Below, one piece after another: positions 1-27,668 of a stretch of DNA of 64,000 bases. Made by a program: the position numbers and the translations under genes. The notes under the pieces are model-generated. The model had not been told where the DNA came from and ran no database searches. It saw only the letters and a list, made by a program, of their open reading frames with translations. Numbering within the stretch: the first letter of the stretch is position 1; the number at the start of each line of letters is the position of its first letter. The stretch spans positions 558,001 to 622,000 of the forward strand of contig JASTWF010000080.1 in assembly GCA_030390025.1 (NCBI GenBank), read 5' to 3'. The DNA is from Squalus acanthias. Its lineage: Eukaryota.

Positions 1-3000
1 CCCCAGAGGGATCTGTGACTGTAATACCGAGCCCCCAGAGGGATCTGTGACTGTAATACCGAGCCCCCAGAGGGATCTGTTACCGTAATACCGAGCCCCC
101 AGAGGGATCTGTGACTGTAATACCGAATCCCCCAGAGGGATCTGTTACTGTAATACCGAGCCCCCAGAGGGATCTGTTACTGTATTACTCAGCCCGCAGA
201 GGGATCTGTTACTGTAATACCGAGCCCCCTGACGGATCTATTACGGTAATACCGATCCCCCAGAGGGATCTGTTACTGTAATACTGAGCCCCCGGAGGGA
301 TCTGTTACAGTAATACCGAGCCCCCAGAGGGATCTGTTACTGTAATACCGAACCCGCAGAGGGATCTGTTACTGTAACACCGAGCCCCCAGTGGGATCTG
401 TTACTGTAATATTGAGCCCCCAGAGGGATCTGTTCCGGTAATACCGAGCCCCCAGAGGGATCTGTTACTGTAATACCGAGCCCCCAGAGGGATCTGTTAC
501 TGTAATACCGAGCCCCCGGAGGGATCTGTTACTGTAATACCGAGCCGCCAGAGGGATCTGTTACTGTAATACCGAGCCCCCAGAGGGATCTGTTACTGTA
601 ATACTGAGTCCCCAGATGGATCTGTTACTGTAATACTGAGCCCCCAGAGGGATCTGTTACTGTATTACTCGGCCCGCAGAGGGATCTGTTACTGTAATAC
701 CGAGCCCCCAGACGGATCTGTTACAGTAATACCGAGCCCCCAGAGGGATCTGTTACTGTAATACCGAGCCCCCAGAGGGATCTGTTACTGTAACGCCGAG
801 CCCCCAGAGGGATCTGTTACTGTAATACTGAGCCCCCAGAGGGATCTGTTCCTGTAATACCGAGCCCCCAGAGGGATCTGTTACTGTAATACCGAGCCCC
901 CAGAGGGATCTGTTACTGTAATACTGAACCCCCAAAGGGATCTGTTACTGTAATACCGAGCCCGCAGAGGGATCTGTTACTGTAATACCGAGTCCCCCAG
1001 AGGGATCTGTTACTGTAATACCGAGCTCCCAGAGGGATCTGTTACTGTAATACTGAATCCCCAGAGGGATCTGATACTGTAGTACCGAGCCCCCAGAGGG
1101 ATCTGTTACTGTAATACCGAGCCCCCAGAGGGATCTGTTACTGTAATACCGAGCCCCCAGAGAGATCTGTTACTGTAATACCGAGCCCCCAGAGGGATCT
1201 GTTAATGTAATACCGAGCCCCCAGAGGGATCTGTTACTGTAATACCGAGCCCCCAGAGGGATCTGTTACTGTAATACTGAACCCGCAGAGGGATCCGTTA
1301 CTGTAATACCGAGCCCCCAGAGGGATCTGTTACTGTAATACCGAGCCCCCAGAGGGATCTGTTACTGTAATACCGAGCCCCAGAGGGATCTGTTACTGTA
1401 ATACTGAGCCCCCAGAGTGATCTGTTACTGTAATACCGAGCCCGCAGAGGGATCTGTTACTGTAATACCGAGCCCGCAGAGGGATCTGTTACTGTAATAC
1501 CGAGCCCCCAGAGGGATCTGTTACTGTAATACCGAGCCCCCAGAGGGATCTGTTACTGTAATACTGAACCCGCAGAGGGATCTGTTACTGTAATACTGAA
1601 CCCCCAGAGGATCTGTTACTGTAATACCGAGCCCCCAGAGGGATCTGTTACTGTAATACTGAACCCCCAGAGGATCTGTTACTGTAATACCGATCCCCCA
1701 GAGGGATCTGTTACTGTAATACTGAACCCGCAGAGGGATCTGTTACTGTAATACCGATCCCCCAGAGGGATCTGTTACTGTAATACCGAGCCCCCAGAGG
1801 GATCTGTTACTGTAATACTGAACCCGCAGAGGGATCTGTTACTGTAATACCGATGCCCCAGAGGGATCTGTTACTGTAATACCGAGCCCCCAGAGGGATC
1901 TGTTACTGTAATACTGAGCCCCCCAGAGGGATCTGTTACTGTAATACCGAGCCCCCAGAGGGATCTGTTACTGTAATACTGAACCCCCAGAGGGATCTGT
2001 TACTGTAATACCGAGCCCCCAGAGGGATCTGTTACTGTAATACCGAGCCCCCAGAGGGATCTGTTACTGTAATACCGAGCCCCCAGAGGGATCTGTTACT
2101 GTAATACCGAGCCCCCAGAGGGATCTGTTACTGTAATACCGAGCCCGCAGAGGGATCTGTTACTGTAATACCGAGCCCCCAGAGGGATCTGTTACTGTAA
2201 TACTGAACCCGCAGAGGGATCTGTTACTGTAATACCGAGCCCCCAGAGGGATCTGTTACTGTAATACCGAGCCCCCAGAGGGATCTGTTACTGTAATACC
2301 GAGCCCGCAGAGGGATCTGTTACTGTAATACCGAGCCCCCAGAGGGATCTGTTACTGCAATACCGAGCCCCCAGAGGGATCTGTTACTGTAATACTGAGC
2401 CCCCGGAGGGATCTGTTACTGTAATACCGAGCACTCAGAGGGATCCGTTACTGTAATACCGAGCCCCCGGAGGAATCTGTTACCATAATACCGAGCCCCC
2501 CAGAGGGATCTGTTACTGTAATACCGAGCCCCCAGAGGGATCTGTTACTGTAGTACTGAGCCCCCAGAGGAATCTGTTACTGTAATACCGAGCCCCCAGA
2601 GGGATCTGTTACTGTAATACCGAACCCCCCAGAGGGATCTGTTGCTGTATTACTGAGCCGCCAGAGGGATCTGTTACTGTAATACTGAGCCCCCAGAGGG
2701 ATCTGTTACTGTAATACTGAGCCCCCGGAGGGATCTGTTAATGTAATACCGAGCCCCCGGAGGGATCTGTTACAGTAATACTGAGCCCCCAGAGGGATCT
2801 GTTACTGTAATACCGAATCCCCCAGATGGATCTGTTACTGTAATACCGAATCCCCCAGAGGGATCTGTTACTGTAATACTGAACCCCCAGAGGGATCTGT
2901 TACTGTAATACTGAGCCCCAGAGGGATCTGTTACTGTAATACTGAGCCCCCAGAGGGATCTGTTACAGTAATACCGAGCCCCCAGAGGGATCCGTTACTG

Positions 3001-6000
3001 TAATACCGAATCCCCCAGAGGGATCTGTTACGGTAATACCGAGCCCCCAGAGGGATCTGTTACTGTAATACCGAGCCCCCAGAGGGATCTGTTACTGTAA
3101 TACCGAGCCCCCAAAGGGATATGTTACTGTAATACCGAGCCCCCAGAGGGATCTGTTACTGTAATACTGAACCCGCAGAGGGATCCGTTACTGTAATACC
3201 GAGCCCCCAGAGGGATCTGTTACTGTAATACCGAGCCCCCAGAGGGATCTGTTACTGTAATACCGAGCCCGCAGAGGGATCTGTTACTGTAATACCGAGC
3301 CCCCGGAGGGATCTGTTACTGTAATACCGAGCACCCAGAGGGATCCGTTACTGTAATACCGAGCCCCCGGAGGAATCTGTTACTGTAATACCGAGCACCC
3401 AGAGGGATCCGTTACTGTAATACCGAGCCCCAGAGGGATCTGTTACTGTAATCCCGAGCCCCCAGAGGGATCTGTGACTGTAATACCGAGCCCCCAGAGG
3501 GATCTGTGACTGTAATACCGAGCCCCCAGAGGGATCTGTTAATGTAATCCCAAGCCCCCAGAGGGATCTGTGACTGTAATACCGAATCCCCCAGAGGGAT
3601 CTGTTAGTGTAATTCCGAGCCCCCAGAGGGATCTGTTACTGTATTACTCAGCCCGCAGAGGGATCTGTTACTGTAATACCGATCTCCCAGAGGGATCTGT
3701 TACTGTAATATTGAGCCCCCGGAGGGATCTGTTTCAGTAATACCGAGCTCCAAGAGGGATCTGTTACTGTAATACCGAGCCCGCAGAGGGATCTGTTACT
3801 GTAACACTGAGCCCACAGAGGGATCTGTTACTGTAATATTGAGCCCCCAGAGGGATCGGTTCCGGAAATACCGAGCCCCCAGAGGGATCTATTACTGTAA
3901 TACCGAGCCCCCAGAGGGATCTGTTACTGTAATACCGAGCCCCCGGAGGGATCTGTTACTGTAATACCGAGCCGCCAGAGGGATCTGTTACTGTAATACC
4001 GAGCCCCCAGAGGGATCTGTTACTGTAATACTGAGTCCCCAGATGGATCTGTTACTGTAATATTGAGTCCCCAGAGGGATCTGTTACTGTATTACTCAGC
4101 CCGCAGAGGGATCTGTTACTGTAATACCGAGCCCCCAGACGGATCTGTTACAGTAATACCGAGCCCCCAGAGGGATCTGTTACTGTAATACCGAGCCCGC
4201 AGAGGGATCTGTTACTGTAACACCGAGCCCCCAGAGGGATCTGTTACTGTAATACTGAGCCCCCAGAGGGATCTGTTACTGTAATACTGAACCCGCAGAG
4301 GGATCTGTTCCTGTAATGCCGAGCCCCCAGAGGGATCTGTTACTGTAATACCGAGCCCCCAGAGGGATCTGTTACTGTAATACTGAACCCCCAGAGGGAT
4401 CTGTTACTGTAATACCGAGACCGCAGAGGGATCTGTTACTGTAATACCGAGCTCCCAGAGGGATCTGTTACTGTAATACTGAATCCCCAGAGGGATCTGA
4501 TACTGTAGTACCGAGCCCCCAGAGGGATCTGTTACTGTAATACCGAGCCCGCAGAGGGATCTGTTACTGTAATACCGAGCCCCCGGAGGGATCTGTTACT
4601 GTAATACCGAGCACCCAGAGGGATCCGTTACTGTAATACCGAGCCCCCGGAGGAATCTGTTACTGTAATACCGAGCCCCAGAGGGATCTGTTACTGTAAA
4701 ACCGAGCCCCAGAGGGATCTGTGACTGTAATACCGAATCCCCCAGAGGGATCTGTTACTGTAATACCGAGCCCCCAAAGGGATCTGTTACTGTATTACTC
4801 AGCCCGCAGAGGGATCTGTTACTGTAATACCGAGCCCCCAGACGGATCTGTTACTGTAATACCGAGCCCCCGGAGGGATCTGTTACTGTAATACCGAGCC
4901 CCCGGAGGGATCTATTACTGTAATACCGAGCCCCCAGAGGGATCTGTTACTGTAATACCGAGCCCCCAGAGGGATCTGTTACTGTAATACCGAGCCCCCA
5001 GAGGGATCTGTTACTGTAATACCGAGCCCCCGGAGGGATCTATTACTGTAATACCGAGCCGCCAGAGGGATCTGTTACTGTAATACCGAGCCCCCAGAGG
5101 GATCTGTTACTGTAATACTGAGTCCCCAGATGGATCTGTTACTGTAATACTGAGCCCCCAGAGGGATCTGTTACTGTATTACTCAGCCCGCAGAGGGATC
5201 TGTTACTGTAATACCGAGCCCCCAGACGGATCTGTTACAGTAATACCGAGCCACCAGAGGGATCTGTTACTGTAATACTGAGCCCCCAGAGGGATCTGTT
5301 ACTGTAATACTGAACCCGCAGAGGGATCTGTTACTGTAATACCGAGCCCCCAGAGGGATCTGTTACTGTAATACCGAGCCCCCGGAGGGATCTATTACTG
5401 TAATACCGAGCCGCCAGAGGGATCTGTTACTGTAATACCGAGCCCCCAGAGGGATCTGTTACTGTAATACTGAGTCCCCAGATGGATCTGTTACTGTAAT
5501 ACTGAGCCCCCAGAGGGATCTGTTACTGTATTACTCAGCCCGCAGAGGGATCTGTTACTGTAATACCGAGCCCCCAGACGGATCTGTTACAGTAATACCG
5601 AGCCACCAGAGGGATCTGTTACTGTAATACTGAGCCCCCAGAGGGATCTGTTACTGTAATACCGAACCCGCAGAGGGATCTGTTCCTGTAATACCGAGCC
5701 CCCAGAGGGATCTGTTACTGTAATACCGAGCCCCCAGAGGGATCTGTTACTGTAATACTGAACCCCCAGAGGGATCTGTTACTGTAATACCGATCCCCCG
5801 GAGGGATCTGTTACTGTAATACCGAGCCCCCAGAGGGATCTGTTACTGTAATACTGAACACCCAGAGGATCTGTTACTGTAATACCGATCCCCCAGATGG
5901 ATCTGTTACTGTAATACTGAACCCGCAGAGGGATCTGTTACTGTAATACCGATCCCCCAGAGGGATCTGTTACTGTAATACCGAGCCCCAGAGGGATCTG

Positions 6001-9000
6001 TTACTGTAATACTGAACCCGCAGAGGGATCTGTTACTGTAATACCGATGCCCCAGAGGGATCTGTTACTGTAATACCGAGCCCCCAGAGGGATCTGTTAC
6101 TGTAATACCGAGCTCCCGGAGGGATCTGTTACTGTAATACCGAGCCCCCAGAGGGATCTGTTACTGTAATACCGAGCCCCCCAGAGGGATCTGTTACTGT
6201 AATACCGAGCCCCCAGAGGGATCTGTTACTGTAATACTGAACCCCCAGAGGGATCTGTTACTGTAATACCGAGCCCCCAGAGGGATCTGTTACTGTAATA
6301 CCGAGCCCCCAGAGGGATCTGTTACTGTAATACCGAGCCCCCAGAGGGATCTGTTAATGTAATACCGAGCCCCCAGAGGGATCTGTTACTGTAATACCAA
6401 GCCCGCAGAGGGATCTGTTACTGTAATACCGAGCCCCCAGAGGGATCTGTTACTGTAATACTGAACCCGCAGAGGGATCTGTTACTGTAATACCGAGCCC
6501 CCAGAGGGATCTGTTACTGTAATACCGAGCCCCCAGAGGGATCTGTTACTGTAATACCGAGCCCGCAGGGGGATCTGTTACTGTAATACCGAGCCCCCAG
6601 AGGGATCTGTTACTGCAATACCGAGCCCCCAGAGGGATCTGTTACTGTAATACTGAGCCCCCGGAGGGATCTGTTACTGTAATACCGAGCACTCAGAGGG
6701 ATCCGTTACTGTAATACCGAGCCCCCGGAGGAATCTGTTACCATAATACCGAGCCCCCCAGAGGGATCTGTTACTGTAATACCGAGCCCCCAGAGGAATC
6801 TGTTACTGTGGTACTGAGCCCCCAGAGGAATCTGTTACTGTAATACCGAGCCCCCAGAGGGATGTGTTACTGTAATAACGAACCCCCCAGAGGGATCTGT
6901 TGCTGTATTACTGAGCCGCCAGAGGGATCTGTTACTGTAATACTGAGCCCCCAGAGGGATCTGTTACTGTAATACTGAGCCCCCGGAGGGATCTGTTAAT
7001 GTAATACCGAGCCCCCGGAGGGATCTGTTACAGTAATACTGAGCCCCCAGAGGGATCTGTTACTGTAATACCGAATCCCCCAGAGGGATCTGTTACTGTA
7101 ATACCGAATCCCCCAGAGGGATCTGTTACTGTAATACTGAACCCCCAGAGGGATCTGTTACTGTAATACTGAGCCCCAGATGGATCTGTTACTGTAATAC
7201 TGAGCCCCCAGAGGGATCTGTTACAGTAATACCGAGCCCCCAGAGGGATCCGTTACTGTAATACCGAATCCCCCAGAGGGATCTGTTACTGTAATACCGA
7301 GCCCCCAGAGGGATCTGTTACTGTAATACCGAGCCCCCAAAGGGATCTGTTACTGTAATACCGAGCCCCAGAGGGATCTGTTACTGTAATCCCGAGCCCC
7401 CAGAGGGATCTGTGACTGTAATACCGAGCCCCCAGAGGGATCTGTGACTGTAATACCGAGCCCCCAGAGGGATCTGTTACCGCAATACCGAGCCCCCAGA
7501 GGGATCTGTGACTGTAATACCGAATCCCCCAGAGGGATCTGTTACTGTAATACCGAGCCCCCAGAGGGATCTGTTACTGTATTACTCAGCCCGCAGAGGG
7601 ATCTGTTACTGTAATACCGAGCACCCTGACGGATCTATTACGGTAATACCGATCCCCCAGAGGGATCTGTTACTGTATTACTCGGCCCGCAGAGGGATCT
7701 GTTACTGTAATACCGAGCCCCCGAGCCCCCAGAGGGATCTGTTACTGTAACGCCGAGCCCCCAGAGGGATCTGTTACTGTAATACTGAGCCCCCAGAGGG
7801 ATCTGTTCCTGTAATACCGAGCCCCCAGAGGGATCTGTTACTGTAATACCGAGCCCCCAGAGGGATTTGTTACTGTAATACTGAACCCCCAAAGGGATCT
7901 GTTACTGTAATACCGAGCCCGCAGAGGGATCTGTTACTGTAATACCGAGCCCCCCAGAGGGATCTGTTACTGTAATACCGAGCTCCCAGAGGGATCTGTT
8001 ACTGTAATACTGAATCCCCAGAGGGATCTGATACTGTAGTACCGAGCCCCCAGAGGGATCTGTTAATGTAATACCGAGCCCCCAGAGGGATCTGTTACTG
8101 TAATACCGAGCCCCCAAAGGGATATGTTACTGTAATACCGAGCCCCCAGAGGGATCTGTTACTGTAATAGCGAGCCCGCAGAGGGATCTGTTACTGTAAT
8201 ACCGAGCCCCCGGAGGGATCTGTTACTGTAATACTGAACCCGCAGAGGGATCCGTTACTGTAATACCGAGCCCCCAGAGGGATCTGTTACTGTAATACCG
8301 AGCCCCCAGAGGGATCTGTTACTGTAATACCGAGCCCGCAGAGGGATCTGTTACTGTAATACCGAGCCCCCGGAGGGATCTGTTACTGTAATACCGAGCA
8401 CCCAGAGGGATCCGTTACTGTAATACCGAGCCCCCGGAGGAATCTGTTACTGTAATACCGAGCACCCAGAGGGATCCGTTACTGTAATACCGAGCCCCAG
8501 AGGGATCTGTTACTGTAATCCCGAGCCCCCAGAGGGATCTGTGACTGTAATACCGAGCCCCCAGAGGGATCTGTGACTGTAATACCGAGCCCCCAGAGGG
8601 ATCTGTTAATGTAATCCCAAGCCCCCAGAGGGATCTGTGACTGTAATACCGAATCCCCCAGAGGGATCTGTTAGTGTAATTCCGAGCCCCCAGAGGGATC
8701 TGTTACTGTATTACTCAGCCCGCAGAGGGATCTGTTACTGTAATACCGATCCCCCAGAGGGATCTGTTACTGTAATACCGAGCCCCCAGAGGGATCTGTT
8801 ACTGTAATACCGAGCCCCCAGAGGGATCTGTTACTGTAATACTGAACCCCCAGAGGGATCTGTTACTGTAATACCGAGACCGCAGAGGGATCTGTTACTG
8901 TAATACCGAGCTCCCAGAGGGATCTGTTACTGTAATACTGAATCCCCAGAGGGATCTGATACTGTAGTACCGAGCCCCCAGAGGGATCTGTTACTGTAAT

Positions 9001-12000
9001 ACCGAGCCCCCAGAGGGATCTGTTACTTTAATACCGAGCCCCCAGAGGGATCTGTTACTGTAATACCGAGCCCCCAGAGGGATCTGTTAATGTAATACCG
9101 AGCCCCCAGAGGGATCTGTTACTGTGATACCGAGCCCGCAGAGGGATCTGTTACTGTAATACCGAGCCCCCGGAGGGATCTGTTACTGTAATACCGAGCA
9201 CCCAGAGGGATCCGTTACTGTAATACCGAGCCCCCGGAGGAATCTGTTACTGTAATACCGAGCCCCAGAGGGATCTGTTACTGTAATACCGAGCCCCAGA
9301 GGGATCTGTGACTGTAACACCGAGCCCCCGGAGGGATCTGTTACTGTAATCCCGAGCCCCCAGAGGGATCTGTGACTGTAATACCGAATCCCCCAGAGGG
9401 ATCTGTTACTGTAATACCGAGCCCCCAGAGTGATCTGTTACTGTATTACTCAGCCCGCAGAGGGATCTGTTACTGTAATACCGAGCCCCCAGACGGATCT
9501 GTTACTGTAATACCGAGCCCCCAGAGGGATCTGTTACTGTAATACCGAGCCCCCGGAGGGATCTATTACTGTAATACCGAGCCGCCAGAGGGATCTGTTA
9601 CTGTAATACCGAGCCCCCAGAGGGATCTGTTACTGTAATACCGAGCCCCCAGAGGGATCTGTTACTGTAATACCGAGCCCCCGGAGGGATCTATTACTGT
9701 AATACCGAGCCGCCAGAGGGATCTGTTACTGTAATACCGAGCCCCCAGAGGGATCTGTTACTGTAATACTGAGTCCCCAGATGGATCTGTTACTGTAATA
9801 CTGAGCCCCCAGAGGGATCTGTTACTGTATTACTCAGCCCGCAGAGGGATCTGTTACTGTAATACCGAGCCCCCAGACGGATCTGTTACAGTAATACCGA
9901 GCCACCAGAGGGATCTGTTACTGTAATACTGAGCCCCCAGAGGGATCTGTTACTGTAATACTGAACCCGCAGAGGGATCTGTTCCTGTAATACCGAGCCC
10001 CCAGAGGGATCTGTTACTGTAATACCGAGCCCCCAGAGGGATCTGTTACTGTAATACTGAACCCCCAGAGGGATCTGTTACTGTAATACCGAGCCCGCAG
10101 AGGGATCTGTTACTGTAATACCGAGCTCCCAGAGGGATCTGTTACTGTAATACGGAATCCCCAGAGGGATCTGATACTGTAGTACCGAGCCCCCAGAGGG
10201 ATCTGTTACTGTAATACCGAGCCCCCAGAGGGATCTGTTACTGTAATACCGAGCCCCCAGAGGGATCTGTTACTGTTATACCGAGTCCCCAGAGGGATCT
10301 GTTAATGTAATACCGAGCCCCCAGAGGGATCTGTTACTGTAATACCGAGCCCCCAAAGGGATATGTTACTGTAATACCGAACCCCCCAGAGGGATCTGTT
10401 ACTGTAATACTGAGCCGCCAGAGGGATCTGTTAATGTAATACCGAGCCCCCAGAGGGATCTGTTACTGTAATACCGAGCCCCCAAAGGGATCTGTTACTG
10501 TAATACTGAGCCCCCAGAGGGATCTGTTACTGTAATACTGAACCCGCAGAGGGACCCGTTACTGTAATACCGAGCCCCCAGAGGGATCTGTTACTGTAAT
10601 ACCGAGCCCCCAGAGGGATCTGTTACTGTAATACCGAGCCCCCAGAGGGATCTGTTACTGTAATACCAAGCCCGCAGAGGGATCTGTTACTGTAATACCG
10701 AGCCCCCGGAGGGATCTGTTACTGTAATACCGAGCACCCAGAGGGATCCGTTACTGTAATACCGAGCCCCCGGAGGAATCTGTTACTGTAATACCGAGCC
10801 CCAGAGGGATCCGTTACTGTAATACCGAGCCCCCAGAGGGATCTGTTACTGTATTACTGAGCCCCCAGAGGGATCTGTTACTTTAATACCGAGCCAGCAG
10901 AGGGATCTGTTACTGTAATACCGAACCCCCCAGAGGGATCTGTTACTGTATTACTGAGCCGCCAGACGGATCTGTTACTGTAATACTGAACCCCCAGAGG
11001 GATCTGTTACTGTAATACCGAATCCCCCAGAGGGATCTGTTACTGTAATACCGAGCCCCCAGAGGGATCTGTTACTGTAATACCGAGCCCCCAAAGGGAT
11101 CTGTTACTGTATTACTCAGCCCGCAGAGGGAACTGTTACTGTAATAACGAGCCCCCAGACGAATCTGTTACTGTAATACCGATCCCCCAGAGGGATCTGT
11201 TACTGTAATACTGAGCCCACGGAGGGATCTGTTACAGCAATACCGAGCCCCCAGAGGGATCTGTTACTGTAATACCGAGCCCGCAGAGGGATCTGTTACT
11301 ATAACACCAAGCCCCCAGAGGGATCTGTTACTGTAATACTGAGCCCCCAGAGGGATCTGTTCCTGAAATACCGAGCCCCCAGAGGGATCTGTTACTGTAA
11401 TACCGAGCCCCAGAGGGATCTGTCACTGTAATACCGAACCCCCAGAGTGATCTGTTACTGTAATACTGAACCCACAGAGGGATCTGTTACTGTAATACCG
11501 AGCCCCCAGAGGGATCTATTACTGTAATACCGAGCCCCCAGAGGGATCTGTTACTGTAATACCGAACCCCCAGAGGGATCTGTTACTGTAATACCGAGCC
11601 GGCAGAGGGATCTGTTACTGTAATACCGAGCCCCCAGAGGGATCTGTTACTGTAATACCGAGCCCCCAGAGGGATCTGTTACTATAATACCGAGCCCCCA
11701 AAGGGATCTGTTACTATAATATCGAGCCCCAAGAGGGATCTGTTACTATAATACCGAGCCCGCAGAGGGATCTGTTACTGTAATACCGAGCCCCCAGAGG
11801 GATCTGTTACTGTAATACCGAGCCCCCAGAGGGATCTGTTACTGTAATACGGAGCCCCCAGAGGGATCTGTTACTGTAACACCGAGCCCTCAGAGGGATC
11901 TGTTACTGTAATACCGAGCCCCAGAGGGATCTGTTACTGTAATACTGAATCCCCAGAGGGATCTGTTACTGTAATACTGAGCACCCAGAGGGATCTGTTA

Positions 12001-15000
12001 CTGTAACACCGAGCCCCTAGAGGGATCTGTTACTGTAATACCGAGCCCCCAGAGGGATCTGTTACTGTAATACCGAGCCTCCAGAGGGATCTGTTAATGT
12101 AATACCGAGCCCCCAGAGGGATCTGTTACTGTAATACCGAGCCCCCAAAGGGATCTGTTACTGTAATACCAAGCCCCCAGAGGGATCTGTTACTGTAATA
12201 CCGAGCCCCCAGATGGATCTGTTACTGTAATACCGAGCCCCCAAAGGGATCTGTTACTGTAATACCGAGCCCCCAGAGGGATCTGTTACTGTAATACTGA
12301 ACCCGCAGAGGGATCCGTTACTGTAATACCGAGCCCCCAGAGGGATCTGTTACTGTAATACCGAGCCCCCAGAGGGATCTGTTACTGTAATACCGAGCCC
12401 CAGAGGGATCTGTTACTGTATTACTGAGCCCCCAGAGGGATCTGTTACTGGAATACTGAGCCCCCAGAGGGATCTGTTACTGTAATACCGAGCCCGCAGA
12501 GGGATCTGTTACTGTAATACTGAGCCCCCGGAGGGATCTGTTACGGTAATACCGAGCCCCCAGAGGTATCTGTTACTGTAATACCGAGCCCACAGAGGGA
12601 TCTGTTACTGTAATACTGAACCCCCAGAGGGATCTGTTACTGTAATACCGAGCCCCCGGAGGGATCTGTTACTGTAATAACGAGCCCCCAGAGGGATCTG
12701 TTACTGTAATACTGAACCCCCAGTGGGATCTGTTACTGTAATACCGAGCCCCCGGAGGGATCTGTTACTGTAATACCGAGCCCCCAGAGGGATCTGTTAC
12801 TGTAATACTGAACCCCCAGAGGGATCTGTTACTGTAAAACCGAGCCCGCAGAGGGATCTGTTACTGTAATACCGAGCTCCCGGAGGGATCTGTTACTGCA
12901 ATACCGAGCCCCCAGAGGGATCTGTTACTGTAATACTGAATCCCCAGAGGGATCTGTTACTGTAATACCGAGCCCCTAGAGGGATCTGTTACTGTAACAC
13001 CGAGCCCCCAGAGGGATCTGTTACTATAATTCCGAGCCCCCAGAGGGATCTGTTACTGTAATACCGAGCCCCCAGAGGGATCTGTTACTGTAATACCGAG
13101 CCCCCAGAGGGATCCGTTACTGTAATACCGAGCCCCCAGAGGGATCTGTTACTGTAATACCGAGCCCCCAGAGGGATCTGTTACTGTAATACCGAGCCCC
13201 CAGAGGGATCTGTTACTGTAATACTGAACCCGCAGAGGGATCTGTTACTGTAATACTGAACCCGCAGAGGGATCCGTTACTGTAATACCGAGCCCCCAGA
13301 GGGATCTGTTAATGTAATACCGAGCCCCAGAGGGATCTGTTACTGTATTACTGAGCCCCAGAGGGATCTGTTACTGGAATACTGAGCCCCCAGAGGGATC
13401 TGTTACTGTAATACCGAGCCCCCAGAGGGATCTGTTAATGTAATACCGAGCCCCAGAGGGATCTGTTACTGTATTACTGAGCCCCCAGAGGGATCTGTTA
13501 CTGGAATACTGAGCCCCCAGAGGGATCTGTTACTGTAATACCGAGCCCGCAGAGGGATCTGTTACTGTAATACTGAGCCCCCAGAGGGATCTGTTACTGT
13601 AATACCGAGCCCCCGGAGGGATCTGTTACTGTAATACCGAGCCCCCAGAGGGATCTGTTACTGTCATACGGAACCCCCAGAGGGATCTGTTACTGTAAAA
13701 CCGAGCCCGCAGAGGGATCTGTTACTGTAATACCGAGCTCCCGGAGGGATCTGTTACTGTAATACCGAGCCCCCAGAGGGATCTGTTACTGTAATACCGA
13801 GCCCCCCAGAGGGATCTGTTACTGTAATACCGAGCCCGCAGAGTGATCTGTTACTGTAATACTGAACCCCCAGAGGGATCTGTTACTGTAATACCGAGCC
13901 CCCAGAGGGACCTGTTACTGTAATACCAAGCCCCCAGAGGGATCTGTTACTGTAATACCGAGCCCCCAGAGGGATCTGTTACTGTAATACTGAATCCCCA
14001 GAGGGATCTGTTACTGTAATACCGAGCCCCCAGAGGGATCTGTTACTGTAATACCGAGCCCCCAGAGGGATCTGTTACTGTAAAACCTAGCCCGCAGAGG
14101 GATCTGTTACTGTAATACCGAACCCCCCAGAGGGATCTGTTACTGTAATACTGAATCCCCAGAGGGATCTGTTACTGTAATACCGAGCCCCCAGAGGGAT
14201 CTGTTACTGTAACACCGAGCCCCCAGAGGGATCTGTTCATGTAATACTGAGCCCCCAGAGGCATCTGTTACTGTAATACCGAGCCCCCAGAGGGATCTGT
14301 TACTGTAATACTGAGCCCCCAGAGGGATCTGTTACTGTAATACCGAGCCCCCCAGAGGGATCTGTTACTGCAATACCGAGCCCCCAGAGGGATCTGTTAC
14401 TGTAACACCGAGCCACCAGAGGGATCTGTTACTGTTATACTGAGCCCGCAGAGGGATCTGTTACTGTAATACCAAGCCCCCAGAGGGATCTGTTACTATA
14501 ATACCGAGCCCCCAGAGGGATCTGTTACTGTAGGACTGAGCCCCCAGAGGGATCTGTTACTGTAACACCGAGCCCCCAGAGGGATCTGTTCATGTAATAC
14601 TGAGCCCCCAGAGGCATCTGTTACTGTAATACCGAGCCCCCAGAGGGATCTGTTACTGTAATACTGAACCCGCGGAGGGACCTGTTACTGTAATACCGAG
14701 CCCCCAGTGGGGTCTGTTACTGCAATACCGAGCCCCCAGAGGGATCTGTTACTGTAACACCGAGCCACCAGAGGGATCTGTTACTGTTATACTGAGCCCG
14801 CAGAGGGATCTGTTACTGTAATACCAAGCCCCCAGAGGGATCTGTTACTATAATACCGAGCCCCCAGAGGGATCTGTTACTGTAGGACTGAGCCCCCAGA
14901 GGGATCTGTTAACGTAATACCGAGCCCCCAGAGGGATCTGTTACTGTAATACCAGGCCCCGAGAGGGATCTGTTACTGTAGGACTGAGCCCGCAGAGGGA

Positions 15001-15446
15001 TCTGTTACTGTAGGACTGAGCCCGCAGAGGGATCTGTTACTGTAATACCGAGCCCGCAGAGTGATCTGTTACTGTAATACCGAGTCCCCAGAGGGATCTG
15101 TTACTGTAATACTGAGCCCCCAGAGGGATCTGTTACTGTAATACCGAGCCCCCAGAGGGATCTGTTACTGTAATACCGAGCCCCGAGAGGGATCTGTTAC
15201 TGTAGGACTGAGCCCCCAGAGGGATCTGTTACTGTAATACCGAGCCCCCAGAGGGATCTGTTACTGTAATACCGAGCCCCGAGAGGGATCTGTTACTGTA
15301 GGACTGAGCCCGCAGAGGGATCTGTTACTGTAATACCGAGCCCCCAGAGGGATCTGTTACTGTAATACCGAGCCCCCAGAGGGGTCTGTTACTGTAATAC
15401 CGAGCCCCCAGAGGGATCTGTTGCTGTAGGACTGAGCCCGCAGAGA
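1..15446. repeat. Tandem satellite, 32-bp unit (GAGGGATCTGTTACTGTAATACCGAGCCCCCA), roughly 480 copies, runs off the window start; probably intronic to the MHC class I gene
   Basis: 32-bp period seen directly (GAGGG at 6, 38, ...); head-to-tail with no unique spacers; ends ~200 bp before the alpha2 acceptor. Confidence 0.98.
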
Positions 15447-15648: not shown

Positions 15649-15924
15649 GAATTCACATGTTGCAAATGATAAGGACTGTTGAGATCACTGAAGATGGCTC
15701 CATTCAGAGAACGATGCGTGTTGGATTTGATGGAAATGACTATCTTAGTTTAGAACCAAACAGAATGAGATGGGTCGCATCCAACTCCTTTGCAGTGAAG
15801 ACCAAGGAGATATGGGATTATGATGAATCCTGGAACGCGTATTGGAAGTGGCACTTGGAAGTAGAACTTGTTGAGCGTTTGAAAACACGTTTGCACTTTG
15901 GAAATAAATATTTTGAAAGGAAAG
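15649..15924 (+). CDS. MHC class I (non-classical) heavy chain, alpha2-domain exon
   Basis: ACTACAG acceptor and AAG|GTATTT donor; 276 bp, phase 1-1 as in class I alpha2 exons; translation GIHMLQ...GFDGNDYLSL...W...TKEIWD...GNKYFERK aligns to class I alpha2 (H93, Q96, D119, G120, D122, Y123, W133, T143, W147, G175 retained, HLA numbering). Confidence 0.93.
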
Positions 15925-18660: not shown

Positions 18661-18939
18661 TTCAGCCCGAAGTGTTCATCTCTAGAAGTGACCCCAATAG
18701 TCAGTACAAACCGCCCACTCTCTCCTGCCTGGTTACTGGATTTTACCCTGTAGACATCGAGGTGACCAGGCTAAGGAATGGAGAGCCAGTGTCTGAGAGC
18801 CACTCCTCGGGGGTTCGACCGAACCACAATGGGACCCATCAGATCAAGAAAGAGATTGAAGTAACTGCTGGGGATGAGGATCAATACTCCTGTCAAATTG
18901 AACACAGCAGCCTGGCAGAGGCAAAGGTCTATCGGTGGG
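18661..18939 (+). CDS. MHC class I heavy chain, alpha3 (Ig C1-set) exon
   Basis: Strong polypyrimidine tract + CAG acceptor, TGGG|GTAAGG donor; 279 bp, phase 1-1; VQPEVF...LSCLVTGFYPVDIEV...PNHNGTHQ...YSCQIEHSSL with both Ig cysteines. Confidence 0.96.
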
Positions 18940-21250: not shown

Positions 21251-21589
21251 GATGTGAAATCCATCAGTGATGCTGACTCCTGGGGCGTACAATGTGACCC
21301 TGGGGATGGACCCAGGACAGGACACAGAGACATGGGGGGTAAATTGAACTGAGCTCGCTGGGCAGGTAACCCTGGGATCGGGGCAACGCCGGTCCATCAC
21401 CACCATCAATGAGACTCTTTATTGACTCCAATGGAGAGTGAGATCAGGCGAGAGTAAAACCAGCGTTGGACCCGATCCCTCAGATTCCCGACGGGCGGGT
21501 GAGGTTAAAATTGTCCCTCCATCGACACCGAACTGGGAATGAATCCAGGAACAGAGAAACTATCCTGATATTATTCAAATGTGTTTCAG

Positions 21590-21703
21590 AAATACCGGAA
21601 AACTGTGGTGCACGCTCCCATCATGGAATTATAATTGGAACAGTCGCTGCACTGGTTATAATCGGGATAATCGGAATATTCATCTGGATAAAACAACGGA
21701 GAG
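21590..21703 (+). CDS. MHC class I connecting-peptide/transmembrane exon
   Basis: TTTCAG acceptor, GAG|GTAAGA donor; 114 bp, phase 1-1, in frame with alpha3; EIPENCGARSHH-GIIIGTVAALVIIGIIGIFIWI-KQRR (hydrophobic span plus basic stop-transfer residues). Confidence 0.88.
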
Positions 21704-21711
21704 GTAAGAAT

Positions 21712-22003
21712 CAGAGAGAAGGGAATGTAGAACTGAGGGACAGAGTGAGTGTGGGGAATCTCCAGTACTGGGAGCACAGGGCACTGAGAGGAGAGAGTGA
21801 GAGAGGAATGTAGAACTGAGGGACAGAGTGAGTGTGGGGAATCTCCAGTACTGGGAGCACAGGGCACTGAGAGGAGAGAGTGAGAGAGAGGAATGTAGAA
21901 CTGAGGGACAGAGTGAGTGTGGGGAATCTCCAGTACTGGGAGCACAGGGCACTGAGAGGGGAGAGTGAGAGAGAGGAATGTAGAACTGAGGGACAGAGTG
22001 AGT
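21712..22003. repeat. Minisatellite, 83-85-bp unit, about 3.5 copies, directly after the TM donor
   Basis: GGAATGTAGAACTGAGGGACAG recurs at 21722, 21805, 21890 and 21975. Confidence 0.95.
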
Positions 22004-22106: not shown

Positions 22107-25100
22107 ACGCGCCCTCCAGTCCCTCAAACTCCAGTCCCTCAAACACCCGTCCCTCAAACTCCCGTCCCTCAAACTCCAATCCCTCGCCCTCCAGTCCCTC
22201 GCCCTCCAGTCCCTCGCCCTCCAGTCCCTCAAATTCCAGTCCCTCAAACTCCAGTCCCTCAAACTCCAATCCCTCGCCCTCCAGTCCCTCGCCCTCCAGT
22301 CCCTCAAACTCCAGTCCCTCAAACTCCAGTCCCTCAAACTCCAATCCCTCGCCCTCCAATCCCTCGTCCGCCAGTCCCTCGCCCTCCAGTCCCTCACCCT
22401 CCAGTCCCTCGCCCTCCAGTCCCTCGCCCTCGAGTCCCTCGCCCTCCAGTCCCTCCCCTTCCAGTCCCACACCCTGCACTCCCCCTCCACTCCCTCACCC
22501 TCCAGTCCATTGTCCTCCAGTCCCTCACCCTCCATTCCCTCACCCTACAGTCCCTTTTCCTCCAATTCTTCACCCTCCAGTCCCTTGTCCTCCAGTCCCT
22601 CGCCCTCCAGTCCCTCGCCCTCCAATCCCTCGCCCTCCAGTCCCTCGCCCTCCAGCCCCTCGCCCTCCACTCGCTCACCCTCCAGTCCCTCGTCCTCCAG
22701 TCCCTCGCTCTCCAGTCCCTCGCCCTCCAGTCCCTTGCTCTCCAGTCCCTCCCCCTCCAGTCCCTCGCCCTCCACTCCCTCGCCCTCCAGTCCCTCGCCC
22801 TCCAGTCCCTCGCCCTCCAGTCCCTCGCCCTCCAGTCCCTCACCCTCCTGTCCCTCACCCTCCAGTCCCTGGCCCTCCAGTCCCTCCCCCTCCAGCCCCT
22901 CCCCGTCCAGTCCTTCGCCTTCCAGTCCATCGTCCTCCAGCCCCTCGCCTTCCAGTCCCTCGCCCTCCAGTCCCTCCCCCTCCAGTCCCTCCCCCTCCAG
23001 CCCCTCGCCCTCCAGTCCCTTGCCCTCCAGTCCCTCGCCCTCCAGTCCCTCAGCCTCCAGTCCTTCGCCTTCCAGACCCTCACCCTCCAGTCCCTCGCCC
23101 TCCATCCCCTCACCCTCCACTCGCTCGCCCTCCAGTCCCTCCCGCTCCAATCCCTCCCCCTCCAGTCCCTCGCCCTCCAGCCCCTCGCCCTCCAGCCCCT
23201 CGCCCTCCAGCCCCTCGCCCTCCAGCCCCTCGCCCTCCAGCCACTCGCCCTCCAGTCCCTCGCCCTCCAGTCCCTCGCCCTCCAATCCCTCGCCCTCCAG
23301 TCCCTCGCCCTCCAGCCCCTCGCCCTCCACTCGCTCACCCTCCAGTCCCTCGTCCTCCAGTCCCTCGTCCGCCAGTCCCTCGCCCTCCACTCCCTCGCCC
23401 TCCAGTCCCTCGTCCTCCAGTCCCTCACCTTCCAGTCCCTCCCCCTCCAGTCCCTCACCCTCCAGTCCCTCGTCATCCAGTCCCTCGCCCTCCAGTCCCT
23501 CACCCTCCAGTCCCTCGCCCTCCTGCCCATCCCCCTCCAGTCCCTCGCCCTCCAGTCCCTCGCCCTCCAGTCCCTCGTCCTCCAGTCGCTCGACCTCCAG
23601 ACCCTCGCCCTCCAGCCCCTCGCCCTCCAATCACTCGCCCTCCAGTCCCTCGCCCTCCTGCCCATCCCCCTCCAGGCCCTAGCCCTCCAGTCCCTCGCCC
23701 TCCAGTCCCTCGTCCTCCAGTCTCTCGCCCTCCAGTCTCTCGCCCTCCAGTCCCTCCCCCTCCTGCCCCTCCCCCTCCAGTCCCTCGCCCTCCAGTCCCT
23801 CGCCCTCCAGCCACTCGCCCTCCCGCCACTCGCCCTCCAGTCCCTCCCCCTCCAGTCCGTCCCCCTCCAGTCCCTCGCCCTCCAGTCCCTCCCCCTCCAG
23901 GCCCTAGCCCTCCAGTCCCTCGCCCTCCAGTCCCTCGTCCTCCAGTCTCTCGCCCTCCAGTCTCTCGCCCTCCAGTCCCTCCCCCTCCTGCCCCTCCCCC
24001 TCCAGGCTCTCGCCCTCCAGGCTCTCGCCCTCCAGTCCCTCGCCCTCCAGCCACTCGCCCACTCGCCCTCCAGTCCCTCCCCCTCCAGTCCGTCCCCCTC
24101 CAGTCCCTCGCCCTCCAGTCCCTCGCCCTCCAGTCCCTCCCCCTCCAGTCCATCCCCCTCCAGTCCCTCGCCCTCCACTCCCTCACCCTCCAGTCCCTCC
24201 CCCTCCAGCTCCTCCCCCTCCTGTCCCTCCCCCTCCAGTCCCTCGCCCTCCAGTCCCTCGCCCTCCTGCCCCTCCCCCACCAGTCCCTCACCCTCCAGTC
24301 CCTCGCCCTCCAGTCCCTCGCCCTCCAGCCGCTTGCTCTCCACTCCCTCCCCCTCCAGTCCCTCGCCCTCCAGTCCCTCGCCCTCCACTCCCTCGCCCTC
24401 CAGTCCATCGCCCTCCAGTCCCTCGCCCTCCAGTCCCTCCCCCTCCAATCCCTCCCCCTCCAGTCCTTCACCCTGCAGACCCTTGCCCTCCAGTCCCTCG
24501 CCCTCCAGACCCTCGCCCTCCAGACCCTCGCCCTCCAGTCCCTCCCCCTCCAGTCCCTCGCCCTTCAATCCCTCACCCTCCAGTCTCAAGTCCTCCAGTC
24601 CCTCGCCCTCCAGTCCTTCGTCCTCCAGTCCCTCGTCCTCCAGTCCCTCCTTCTCTAGTCCCTCACCTTCCAGTCCCTCGCCCTCCAGTCCCTCGCTCTC
24701 CAGTCCCTCGCCTTCCAGTCGCTCGCCCTCCAGTCCCTCGCTCTCCAGTCCATCGCCCTCCAGTCCCTCCCGTCCCTCCCCCTCCAGTCCATCGCCTTCC
24801 AGTCCCTCGCCTTCCAGTCCCTCGTCCTCAAGTCCCTCGCCCTCCAGTCCCTCGCCCTCCAGTCCCTCGCCCTCCTGCCCCTCCCCCACCAGTCCCTCAC
24901 CCTCCAGTCCCTCGCCCTCCAGTCCCTCGCCCTCCAGCCGCTTGCTCTCCACTCCCTCCCCCTCCAGTCCCTCGCCCTCCAGTCCCTCGCCCTCCACTCC
25001 CTCGCCCTCCAGTCCATCGCCCTCCAGTCCCTCGCCCTCCAGTCCCTCCCCCTCCAATCCCTCCCCCTCCAGTCCTTCACCCTGCAGACCCTTGCCCTCC

Positions 25101-27668
25101 AGTCCCTCGCCCTCCAGACCCTCGCCCTCCAGACCCTCGCCCTCCAGTCCCTCCCCCTCCAGTCCCTCGCCCTTCAATCCCTCACCCTCCAGTCTCAAGT
25201 CCTCCAGTCCCTCGCCCTCCAGTCCTTCGTCCTCCAGTCCCTCGTCCTCCAGTCCCTCCTTCTCTAGTCCCTCACCTTCCAGTCCCTCGCCCTCCAGTCC
25301 CTCGCTCTCCAGTCCCTCGCCTTCCAGTCGCTCGCCCTCCAGTCCCTCGCTCTCCAGTCCATCGCCCTCCAGTCCCTCCCGTCCCTCCCCCTCCAGTCCA
25401 TCGCCTTCCAGTCCCTCGCCTTCCAGTCCCTCGTCCTCAAGTCCCTCGCCCTCCAGTCCCTCGCCCTCCAGTCACTCCCGCTCCAATCCCTCCCCCTCCA
25501 GTCCCTCGCCCTCCACTCCCTCGCCCTCCAGTCCCTCCCGCTCCAGTCCCTCCCCCTCCAGTCCCTCGCCCTCCAGTCCCTCGTCCTCCAGTCCCTCACC
25601 TTCCAGTCCCTCCCCCTCCAGTCCCTCACCCTCCAGTCCCTCGTCATCCAGTCCCTCGCCCTCCAGTCCCTCACCCTCCAGTCCCTCGCCCTCCTGCCCA
25701 TCCCCCTCCAGTGCCTCCCCCTCCAGTCCCTCCCCCTCCAGTCACTCCCGCTCCAATCCCTCCCCCTCCAGTCCCTCGCCCTCCACTCCCTCGCCCTCCA
25801 GTCCCTCCCGCTCCAGTCCCTCCCCCTCCAGTCCCTCGCCCTCCAGTCCCTCGTCCTCCAGCCCCTCGCCCTCCAGCCCCTCGCCCTCCAGTCCCTCGTC
25901 CTCCAGTCCCTCGCCCTCCAGTCCCTCGCCCTCCAGTCCCTCGCCCTCCAGTCCCTCGCCCTCCAGCCCCTCGCCCTCCACTCCCTCGTCCTCCAGTCCC
26001 TCGCCCGCCAGCCCCTCGCCCTCCACTCCCTCGCCCTCCAGTCCCTCGTCTTCCAGTCCCTCCCCTCCAGTCCCTCCCCCTCCAGTCCCTCGCCCTCCAG
26101 TCCCTCGCCCTCCAGTCCCTCGCCCTCCTGCCCCTCCCCCTCCAGTCCCTCGCTTTCCAGCCCCTCGCCCTCCTGCCCCTCCCCCTCCAGTCCCTCACCC
26201 TCCAGTCCCTCGTCCTCCAGTCCCTCACCCTCCAGTCCCTCGCTCTCCAGTCCCTCGCCCACCAGTCCCTCCCCCTCCAGTCCCTCGCCCTCCACTCCCT
26301 CGCCCTCCACTCCCTCACCCTCCAGTCCCTCCCCCTCAAGCTCCTCCCCCTCCTGTCCCTCCCCCTCCAGTCCCTCGCCCTCCAGTCCCAGGCCTCCAGC
26401 CCCTCGCCCTCCTGCCCCTCCCCCACCAGTCCCTCACCCTCCAGTCCCTCGCCCTCCAGCCCCTCGCTCTCCACTCCCTCGCCCTCCACTCCCTCGACCT
26501 CCAGTCCATCGCCCACCAGTCCCTCGCCCTCCAGACCCTCGCCCTCCAGCCACTCGCCCTCCAGCCACTCGCCCTCCAGTCCCTCGCCCTCCAGTCCCTC
26601 CCCCTCCAGTCCCTCGCCCTCCAGTCCCTCGCCCTCCAATCCCTCACCCTCCAGTCTCAAGTCCTCCAGTCCCTCGCCCTCCAGTCCTTCGCCCTCCAGT
26701 CCCTCGTCCTCCAGTCCCTCGTCCTCCAGTCTCTCCCCTTCCAGTCCCTCGCCCTCCAGTCCCTCGCCCTCCAGTCCCTCGCCTTCCAGTCGCTCGCCCT
26801 CCAGTCCCTCGCCCTCCAGTCCCTCGCTCTCCAGTCCATCGCCCTCCAGTCCCTCCCGTCCCTCCCCCTCCAGTCCCTCGCCTTCCAGTCCCTCGCCTTC
26901 CAGTCCCTCGCCCACCAGTCCCTCCCCCTCCAGTCTCTCGCCTTCCAGTCCCTCGCCCTCCAGTCCCTCCCACTCCAGTCCCTCACCCACCAGTCCCTCC
27001 CCCTCCAGTCCCTCCCCCTCCAGTCCCTCCCCCTCCAGTCCCTCCCCCTCCAGTCCCTCCCCCTCCAGTCCCTCCCCCTCCAGTCCCTCCCCCTCCAGCC
27101 CCTCCCCCTCCAGTCCCTCCCCCTCCAGTCCCTCCCCCTCCAGTCCCTCCCCCTCCAGTCCCTCCCCCTCCAGTCCCTCCCCCTCCAGTCCCTCGCCCTC
27201 CAGTCCCTCGTCCTCCAGTCCCTCCCCCTCCAGTCCCTCGCCCTCCAGTCCCTCGCCCTCCAGTCCCTCCCCATCCAGTCCCTCGTCCTCCAGTCCCTCC
27301 CCCTCCAGTCCCTCGCCCTCCAGTCTCTCGCCTTCCAGTCCCTCGCCTTCCAGACCCTCGCCCTGCAGTCTCTCGCCCTCCAGTCCCTCGCCCTCCAGTC
27401 TCTCGCCTTCCAGTCCATCGCCCTCCAGTCCCTCCCCCTCCAGTCCCTCCACCTCCAGGCCCTCCCTCTCCAGTCCCTCCCCCTCCAGTCCCTCGCCCTC
27501 CAGTCCCTCGCCCTCCAGTCCCTCCCCCTCCAGTTCCTCCACCTCCAGTCCCTCGCCCTCCAGTCCCCCCTCCAGTCCCTCGCCCTCCAGTTTCTCACCC
27601 ACCAGCCCCTCCCCCTCCAGTCCCCCTCCAGTCCCTCGCCCTCCAGTCCCCCCTCCAGACCCTCGCCA
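22107..27668. repeat. C-rich/G-rich 15-bp satellite (CCCTCCAGTCCCTCG)n, about 5.5 kb
   Basis: 15-bp period seen directly; stop-free in several frames, giving spurious PSSPS/LEGEG/RARDW/LQSLA ORFs. Confidence 0.98.

Follow-up and report, generated by a model that had tools for sequence, protein, structure and literature searches.

How an MHC (major histocompatibility complex) class I platform is organized without a disulfide that is nearly universal among class I molecules is the question raised by a 64,000-nucleotide stretch of Squalus acanthias DNA (here called the window; positions 558001-622000 of its source contig in genome G000, a contig cited below as C3663). The element of interest is an MHC class I α2 exon (15649..15924, + strand; 276 bp, phase 1 at both ends) that encodes no cysteine. 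We consider it probable that this exon specifies the α2 domain of a shark non-classical class I chain, in a cysteine-less family that is most likely UEA, and that this chain, likely paired with β2-microglobulin (β2m), may present a conserved anionic ligand. The exon is a single open frame bounded by a CAG acceptor and a GT donor, and it matches the α2 half of the Pfam MHC_I model (E 2e-11). Its translation aligns to a solved class I chain without a gap, such that a valine and a leucine stand on the C101 and C164 columns; the residue numbers used here are transferred from HLA-A2, and are approximate in loops. The sequence-only reading of this DNA had proposed just these replacements, V101 (GTT, 15678..15680) and L164 (CTT, 15867..15869), which the alignment upholds. 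Its claim of an intact frame, exon length and splice sites holds for this exon, and all five exons of the gene are in frame with canonical sites. The residues that it quoted are also present: R99 (15672..15674), R167 (15876-15878) and R171 (15888-15890), Y123, T143, I146, W147, W152, W156 and H159, plus H93, Q96, D119, G120 and D122. Its further statement that each codon change needs at least two substitutions is correct in that both codons lie two steps from TGT, but at position 164 TTT (Phe) is a one-step intermediate, and five paralogues of the Squalus acanthias genome have TTT there.

The missing disulfide is not peculiar to this gene. We aligned 72 family sequences (7 from the Squalus acanthias genome and 65 proteins from 13 shark species), in which position 101 is nearly fixed (V 66, A 3, I 2, L 1, C 0), and position 164 is among the most variable of the platform, with ten residue types (L 25, F 22, Y 6, C 5, G 4, S 4, D 2, one each of W, H and T, and one gap). 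The proteins were collected with a horn shark relative, P0003, as query; 120 were listed, of which 103 are family members, and 38 of these 103 (partial, exon-skipped, doubled or duplicate models) stand outside the 72-row counts. Those excluded proteins that have an alignable α2 are likewise without C101. All named family matches among the 120 come from 13 shark species in six orders; no ray or chimaera member was among the proteins listed, an absence that is weak evidence in a word-seeded search. Closer to the window, C3663 holds seven complete family genes and three units without α1 and α2, and the six complete paralogues of the window gene, 57-65% identical to it in α2, also lack both cysteines.

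A sequencing artefact or pseudo-exon is ruled out by the V/I101 and L164 that are common to 13 orthologues, which also answers whether orthologues share these residues, and the family-wide absence of C101 rules out a loss limited to the window copy. Since no member of the family has C101, and its sister lineage, UCA, lacks it too, the disulfide would have been lost once, long ago; from these comparisons it is close to certain that the loss is ancient and shared, rather than having arisen in the window copy. The missing bond is therefore a trait of an old shark lineage with public sequences, and no discovery specific to this window. Its wider interest lies in showing that the class I platform can be maintained across all sharks in the absence of this bond, position 164 becoming a variable site. 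We also noted a broken α2 fragment of the family, with two stops, on a separate large contig (C13:52390766-52390900, locus L008), and that the α2 exon alone, as query against longer proteins, gave no match.

To place the family among shark class I lineages, we made two trees of α1 plus α2. Both are quick maximum-likelihood searches with support from the Shimodaira-Hasegawa-like approximate likelihood ratio test (SH-aLRT) only; the first contains seven imperfectly cut rows, the second a few, and the row for dogfish UCA joins α1 and α2 from two neighbouring UCA loci. The family together with UCA is split from the cysteine-bearing rows with a support of 94 in the first tree and 97 in the second, which contained nine cysteine-bearing rows; in the second tree the family alone receives 93, and the UCA branch is long. 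Within the family there are three main groups, of 7, 15 and 50 rows, and one row is unplaced. Published references are in line with this division: in the α2 set of PMC10751288, both cysteines are absent from dogfish UCA (AF515705) and kept in the UAA, UBA, UDA, UFA and UGA references, and one α2 reference in supplementary file 10, a nurse shark transcript, has V101/L164 and is identical to the window exon at 56 of 91 residues (~62%, counted by eye). The sequence-only reading had allowed that the gene could belong to an already described chondrichthyan lineage, and this proved apt; the novelty of the cysteine loss, on the other hand, has to be given up, because published references of the lineage in which the gene nests already lack both cysteines.

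We are confident that the cysteine-less family is the published UEA lineage, and the window gene is most likely a new member of this already known shark class Ib clade. The evidence for this name is synteny, copy number and what a 2021 abstract reportedly says of UEA. Concerning synteny, PMC10751288 places single-copy UDA and multicopy UEA together in an MHC-Ib cluster next to BRD2 and B2M, and its white shark table gives LOC121291255 as an MHC-Ib gene ~1.8 Mb from B2M and BRD2. We find that LOC121291255 is P0312, an annotated model that joins a family member to a UDA-like chain; thus, in white shark, a member of the family lies in the UDA/UEA cluster near both markers. As for copy number, a review (PMC12562908) names UBA and UEA, and no others, as the expanded shark Ib families; the counts given above show that the present family is multigene. 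Almeida et al. (2021, J Immunol 207:824) reportedly described UEA as a shark-only lineage with dogfish UCA as its relative and three sublineages; its tissue expression is reportedly weak. Both the UCA kinship and the three-group split agree with our trees. The likeness to UEA hence extends over multiple copies, occurrence (here in sharks only), a position beside UDA and B2M/BRD2 in white shark, kinship with UCA, loss of classical anchors and three main subgroups; no difference was shown, and only the window copy itself departs from UEA, in its private W60R and W217R and its rearranged 3' end.

It is very improbable that the family is instead an undescribed lineage, apart from UEA. Such a reading would draw on our literature search, which found no paper stating the cysteine loss, with the possible exception of the paper that defined UEA (sequences that show the loss are in print); passages of PMC4364491, PMC8236899, PMC6523485 and PMC9586880 likewise had no bearing on it. 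It is countered by the member that already stands in the reference set of the same group (PMC10751288), and by another that sits in the cluster called UDA/UEA.

Several known systems were considered for the window gene and rejected. UCA proper shares with the family the lack of C101 and C164, and groups with it against the cysteine-bearing lineages, but it is only 29% identical to the window α2, lacks the three-arginine pocket described below and occupies a separate locus: L018, on contig C2098, matches AF515705, and its α2 is letter-identical to published dogfish UCA by eye. The UCA loci that we saw are C2098:428350-428619 (L018) and 275352-297513, the second copy having an α2 frame that breaks before its end. 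UAA, UBA, UDA, UFA and UGA have the exon plan, the class I fold and the β2m-contact residues in common with the window gene, and differ in keeping C101/C164 and in an α2 that is ~25-37% identical. Classical UAA is further excluded because only Y59, Y123, T143 and W147 of nine anchors are kept (the others being A7, G84, I146, H159 and R171) and α2 has no cysteine; with four of nine classical anchors and no α2 disulfide, the proposal of a non-classical class I molecule is supported. The CD1-like UFA/UGA group does not fit either: UGA-like genes form a separate cluster on contig C26 and branch with cysteine-bearing rows, and UFA was compared by eye. That cluster (C26:30.7-38.4 Mb) has ~15 α2 exons of the UGA-like lineage, on a contig that differs from that of the UAA/UBA-like genes; UGA is called single- or low-copy in a review. 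The W-category, with its class II-like two-domain α and β chains, is ruled out by a single chain with leader, α1-α3 and transmembrane exons. The comparison with MR1 is one of function only. MR1, which binds vitamin B metabolites through a Schiff-base lysine, is likewise conserved, low in copy number and of class Ib, and the region of its A pocket, aromatic and basic, takes small ligands; but it keeps the disulfide, and the α2 match to it is weak (E ~1e-6) and not better than that to classical chains.

A key observation to emerge from the trees is that the window gene belongs to the 15-row group (SH-aLRT 99), that is, to a subgroup of 14 distinct genes once a duplicate isoform is removed, in which its closest relatives are proteins of sevengill, whale, epaulette and bamboo sharks (85-88). 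This subgroup is low in copy number: it occurs in 12 species (five orders), each of which carries one or two such genes. The window gene is the only member found in the Squalus acanthias assembly. R99, R167 and R171 occur together in all 14 members and in just 1 of 58 other family sequences. The end of the groove that forms the A pocket is fixed in the subgroup as Y59, R99, E/D163, L164 (14 of 14), R167 and R171, and at 13 pocket positions the window gene is the same as P0164, P0169, P0173 and P0174, the proteins of the four sharks just named. As the three arginines are conserved throughout the subgroup, they have probably been selected, much as the sequence-only reading had proposed for a basic groove end. 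Its broader notion of a remodelled groove stands for these arginines, but not for K146I, which lies outside the conserved set (64 of 71 relatives have K and none has I); W152 and W156, which it had credited with adding bulk, are present but family-wide, and so not particular to this gene (W133, W147, W156 and M114 in 71/71 relatives, W152 in 70/71). Its β2m-contact residues are kept as well, H93, Q96, G120 and D122 being found in all 71 other family members and D119 in 70. A further protein, P0170 (Mustelus), combines the α2 arginines of the subgroup with the α1 of another group, and pairs in the tree with P0176 (Stegostoma); from its sequence, it is possibly a recombinant.

Elsewhere in the family the same end of the groove varies. 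Positions 99, 159, 163, 164 and 167, all at the A-pocket end, rank within the top 20 of the platform for variability and differ between paralogues, and mean entropy is higher for groove positions than for the other α1/α2 positions (1.50 vs 1.12 bits, p 0.006, from rows that are not independent). In HLA-A2, according to PMC6926029, the C101-C164 bond joins the α2 helix and the groove floor at the A pocket, and TAPBPR no longer binds once the bond is mutated. We hypothesize that peptide-end anchoring and this bond were abandoned together, in the common ancestor of UEA and UCA; V101 would then have held the hydrophobic core, as position 164 and its neighbours diversified, and paralogues would thereby differ mainly at the A pocket, each perhaps tuned to a different ligand. 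In the subgroup, the heavy chain would pair with β2m, and its three fixed arginines may bind a phosphate, carboxylate or sulfate group. We therein tentatively nominate, as the candidate occupant of the arginine-lined pocket, a conserved ligand that is negatively charged and non-peptide, or phosphorylated. A low-copy subgroup with a fixed three-arginine pocket offers a concrete starting point for work on the ligands of UEA-type molecules.

The class I fold itself is predicted to survive without the C101-C164 bond. We used the orthologue P0164 as a stand-in for the window gene, to which it is 77/74/90% identical in α1/α2/α3; its AlphaFold model has 273 residues at a predicted local distance difference test score of at least 90, and a normal class I fold with a root-mean-square deviation of ~2 Å to solved chains. 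Another function is conceivable: the groove could be closed or empty, and the molecule could act via its outer surface as an innate-receptor ligand or as a partner in transport or regulation, for which HFE, FcRn and MICA are the comparison cases. The fixed W133, W147, W152, W156 and M114 would suit such a groove, as would the loss of classical anchors at five of nine positions, and R167/R171 could pair with E163 and so fill the pocket rather than bind a ligand. Yet positions 7, 24 and 67 are small and leave room, and paralogues vary more at groove-facing positions than elsewhere, as expected with differing ligands; we regard a closed groove as unlikely, with an appreciable residual chance.

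Some observations weigh against a UEA-type presenter of an anionic ligand. The subgroup keeps Y59, Y123/F123, T143 (10/13), K146 (10/13) and W147, which would be compatible with restricted peptide binding. A fold search with the P0164 model places classical class I chains of chicken and duck ahead of MR1, and does not discriminate function. Pairwise ratios of nonsynonymous to synonymous change (dN/dS) for α1+α2, which compare the window gene with paralogues of its own genome only, are 0.62-0.67 (NG86) and 0.67-0.96 (LWL85), values that favour neither side. The string UEA occurs zero times in the supplement of PMC10751288, where the nurse shark relative is labelled UCA. Finally, the window copy has W60R, at a column with W in 71/71 relatives, and W217R in the immunoglobulin (Ig) core, where 70/71 have W; the sequence-only reading had noted neither change, and both cast doubt on this copy.

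The first of these points bears on a further rival, in which the molecule would accept only a limited range of peptides, acidic or phosphorylated ones, as monomorphic class Ib molecules that bind peptides do. Most orthologues keep Y59 and the C-terminal-pocket residues T143, K146 and W147, and the arginines could anchor acidic residues. In opposition to this, Y7, Y159, Y171 and R/Y84 are lost, K146 is additionally lost in the window copy, and the disulfide that HLA-A2 requires for TAPBPR binding is gone (PMC6926029). We judge this rival improbable, somewhat more so than a closed groove.

The last point concerns whether this particular copy still works. Our assessment from its sequence is that the window copy probably still makes a working protein. 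It is nevertheless conceivable, if doubtful, that the subgroup is functional in other sharks and that the window copy is a young decaying gene, with a protein that misfolds or a transcript that is incomplete. The private W60R and W217R at near-invariant tryptophan columns suggest this, as do the further departures K146I and K176N, an intron 2 filled by a 44.6-kb satellite, and a terminal exon that has been displaced, the homologue of the orthologues' tail lying 96 kb downstream behind an ~80-kb insertion. Decay is harder to reconcile with five exons (leader, α1, α2, α3, transmembrane) in none of which there is a stop, frameshift or splice defect, with a count of departures at near-invariant columns (3) inside the range of the orthologues (0-5), and with a terminal branch of 0.16-0.17, which is not long. 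Furthermore, all 13 pocket residues are as in the orthologues, this is the sole subgroup member found in the assembly, and read-through of the transmembrane donor would yield a short tail (open frame 21442-21813). W217R is also present in a neighbouring unit that has no α1 and α2 (C3663:701637), which makes a read error unlikely; to go by that shared residue, the change may have been acquired through gene conversion. Orthologues without W60R/W217R are better material for the ligand question than the window copy.

Exchange between family genes is also indicated by α3, whose DNA in the window gene is 97-98% identical to that of paralogues, as against ~75% for α1+α2; the difference points to old groove types that have recently exchanged α3 among themselves. 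Among five close paralogues at C3663:21-124 kb, α1 has dN > dS (1.8-5 by NG86, four pairs, few changes), a hint in these sequences of diversifying selection on their α1.

The gene extends beyond the window. Its leader exon (C3663:525112-525165) and α1 exon (C3663:526887-527150), both in frame, lie 31-33 kb upstream of the window, and within it the α2 exon is followed on the + strand by an α3 exon (Ig C1-set, 18661..18939), which retains its two cysteines and has the W217R codon (AGG) at 18768-18770, and by an in-frame exon for connecting peptide and transmembrane segment with canonical splice sites (21590..21703). Positions 1..15428 of the window, inside the α1-α2 intron, are the 3' third of a 32-bp satellite array that in full covers C3663:528854-573428; its 44,575 bases make up 96% of an intron of 46,498 bases, where those of paralogues measure 1.5-13.5 kb.

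In four paralogues, the transmembrane exon is followed within 1-2 kb by a short terminal exon, which we looked for at the window copy and did not find. These four own separate terminal exons, which disposes of one 3' tail shared by all paralogues in a protocadherin-like layout. An exon homologous to the orthologues' tail does occur at C3663:675910, 96 kb downstream, and its phase fits that of the transmembrane donor. Judged against a sister unit, ~80 kb were inserted ahead of this exon, carrying another gene on the same strand. Pfam assigns to the frame of that gene, from window 62400-64000 to C3663:623807, stonustoxin-type MACPF, helical, thioredoxin-like, FN3 and AIG1/septin-like GTPase domains. 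Frames related to it were seen at C3663:360696-362840 and 436255-438489.

The downstream tail exon is part of an intact frame of 1618 codons (C3663:675910-680763; L110:3910-8763), like URGCP and very large GTPases, and in phase with the transmembrane exon; the 5' exons of such URGCP-like frames are homologous to cytoplasmic-tail exons of the MHC subgroup in other sharks. A ~1950-residue class Ib/GTPase fusion could be imagined, in which the window gene splices to C3663:675910 and thence, through an in-frame deletion, reads into the URGCP frame. If true, an arginine-lined, anion-binding groove outside the cell would be coupled to an intracellular GTPase of interferon type. Exon phases agree, and homologous exons serve as the tail in other sharks' orthologues; against this, another gene lies in the would-be intron, no MHC-URGCP fusion was found among annotated proteins of up to 2000 residues or cluster representatives, and a literature search for URGCP beside shark MHC gave nothing relevant among the matches listed. 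We deem such a fusion highly unlikely.

Relatives of the URGCP-like frame lie at C3663:230681-235726, 281887-287094, 484940-489987 and 503008-508047. The three units that consist of leader, α3 and transmembrane exons, without α1 and α2, are at C3663:200058-206961 (+), 330329-336891 (-) and 696532-704726 (+), and are either truncated duplicates or Ig-only receptors; two of them precede tail/URGCP exons, and one has about ten tandem copies of these. An open frame at window 28341-28751 includes a stretch that is also repeated in sister units; the end of this frame is reminiscent of the start of tripeptidyl peptidase II, but this identity was rejected, Pfam and the PDB giving it no support. Directly 3' of the transmembrane exon is a GC-skewed array of 5.5 kb with a 15-bp unit (window 22114-27667), which gives rise to long, low-complexity open frames on both strands.
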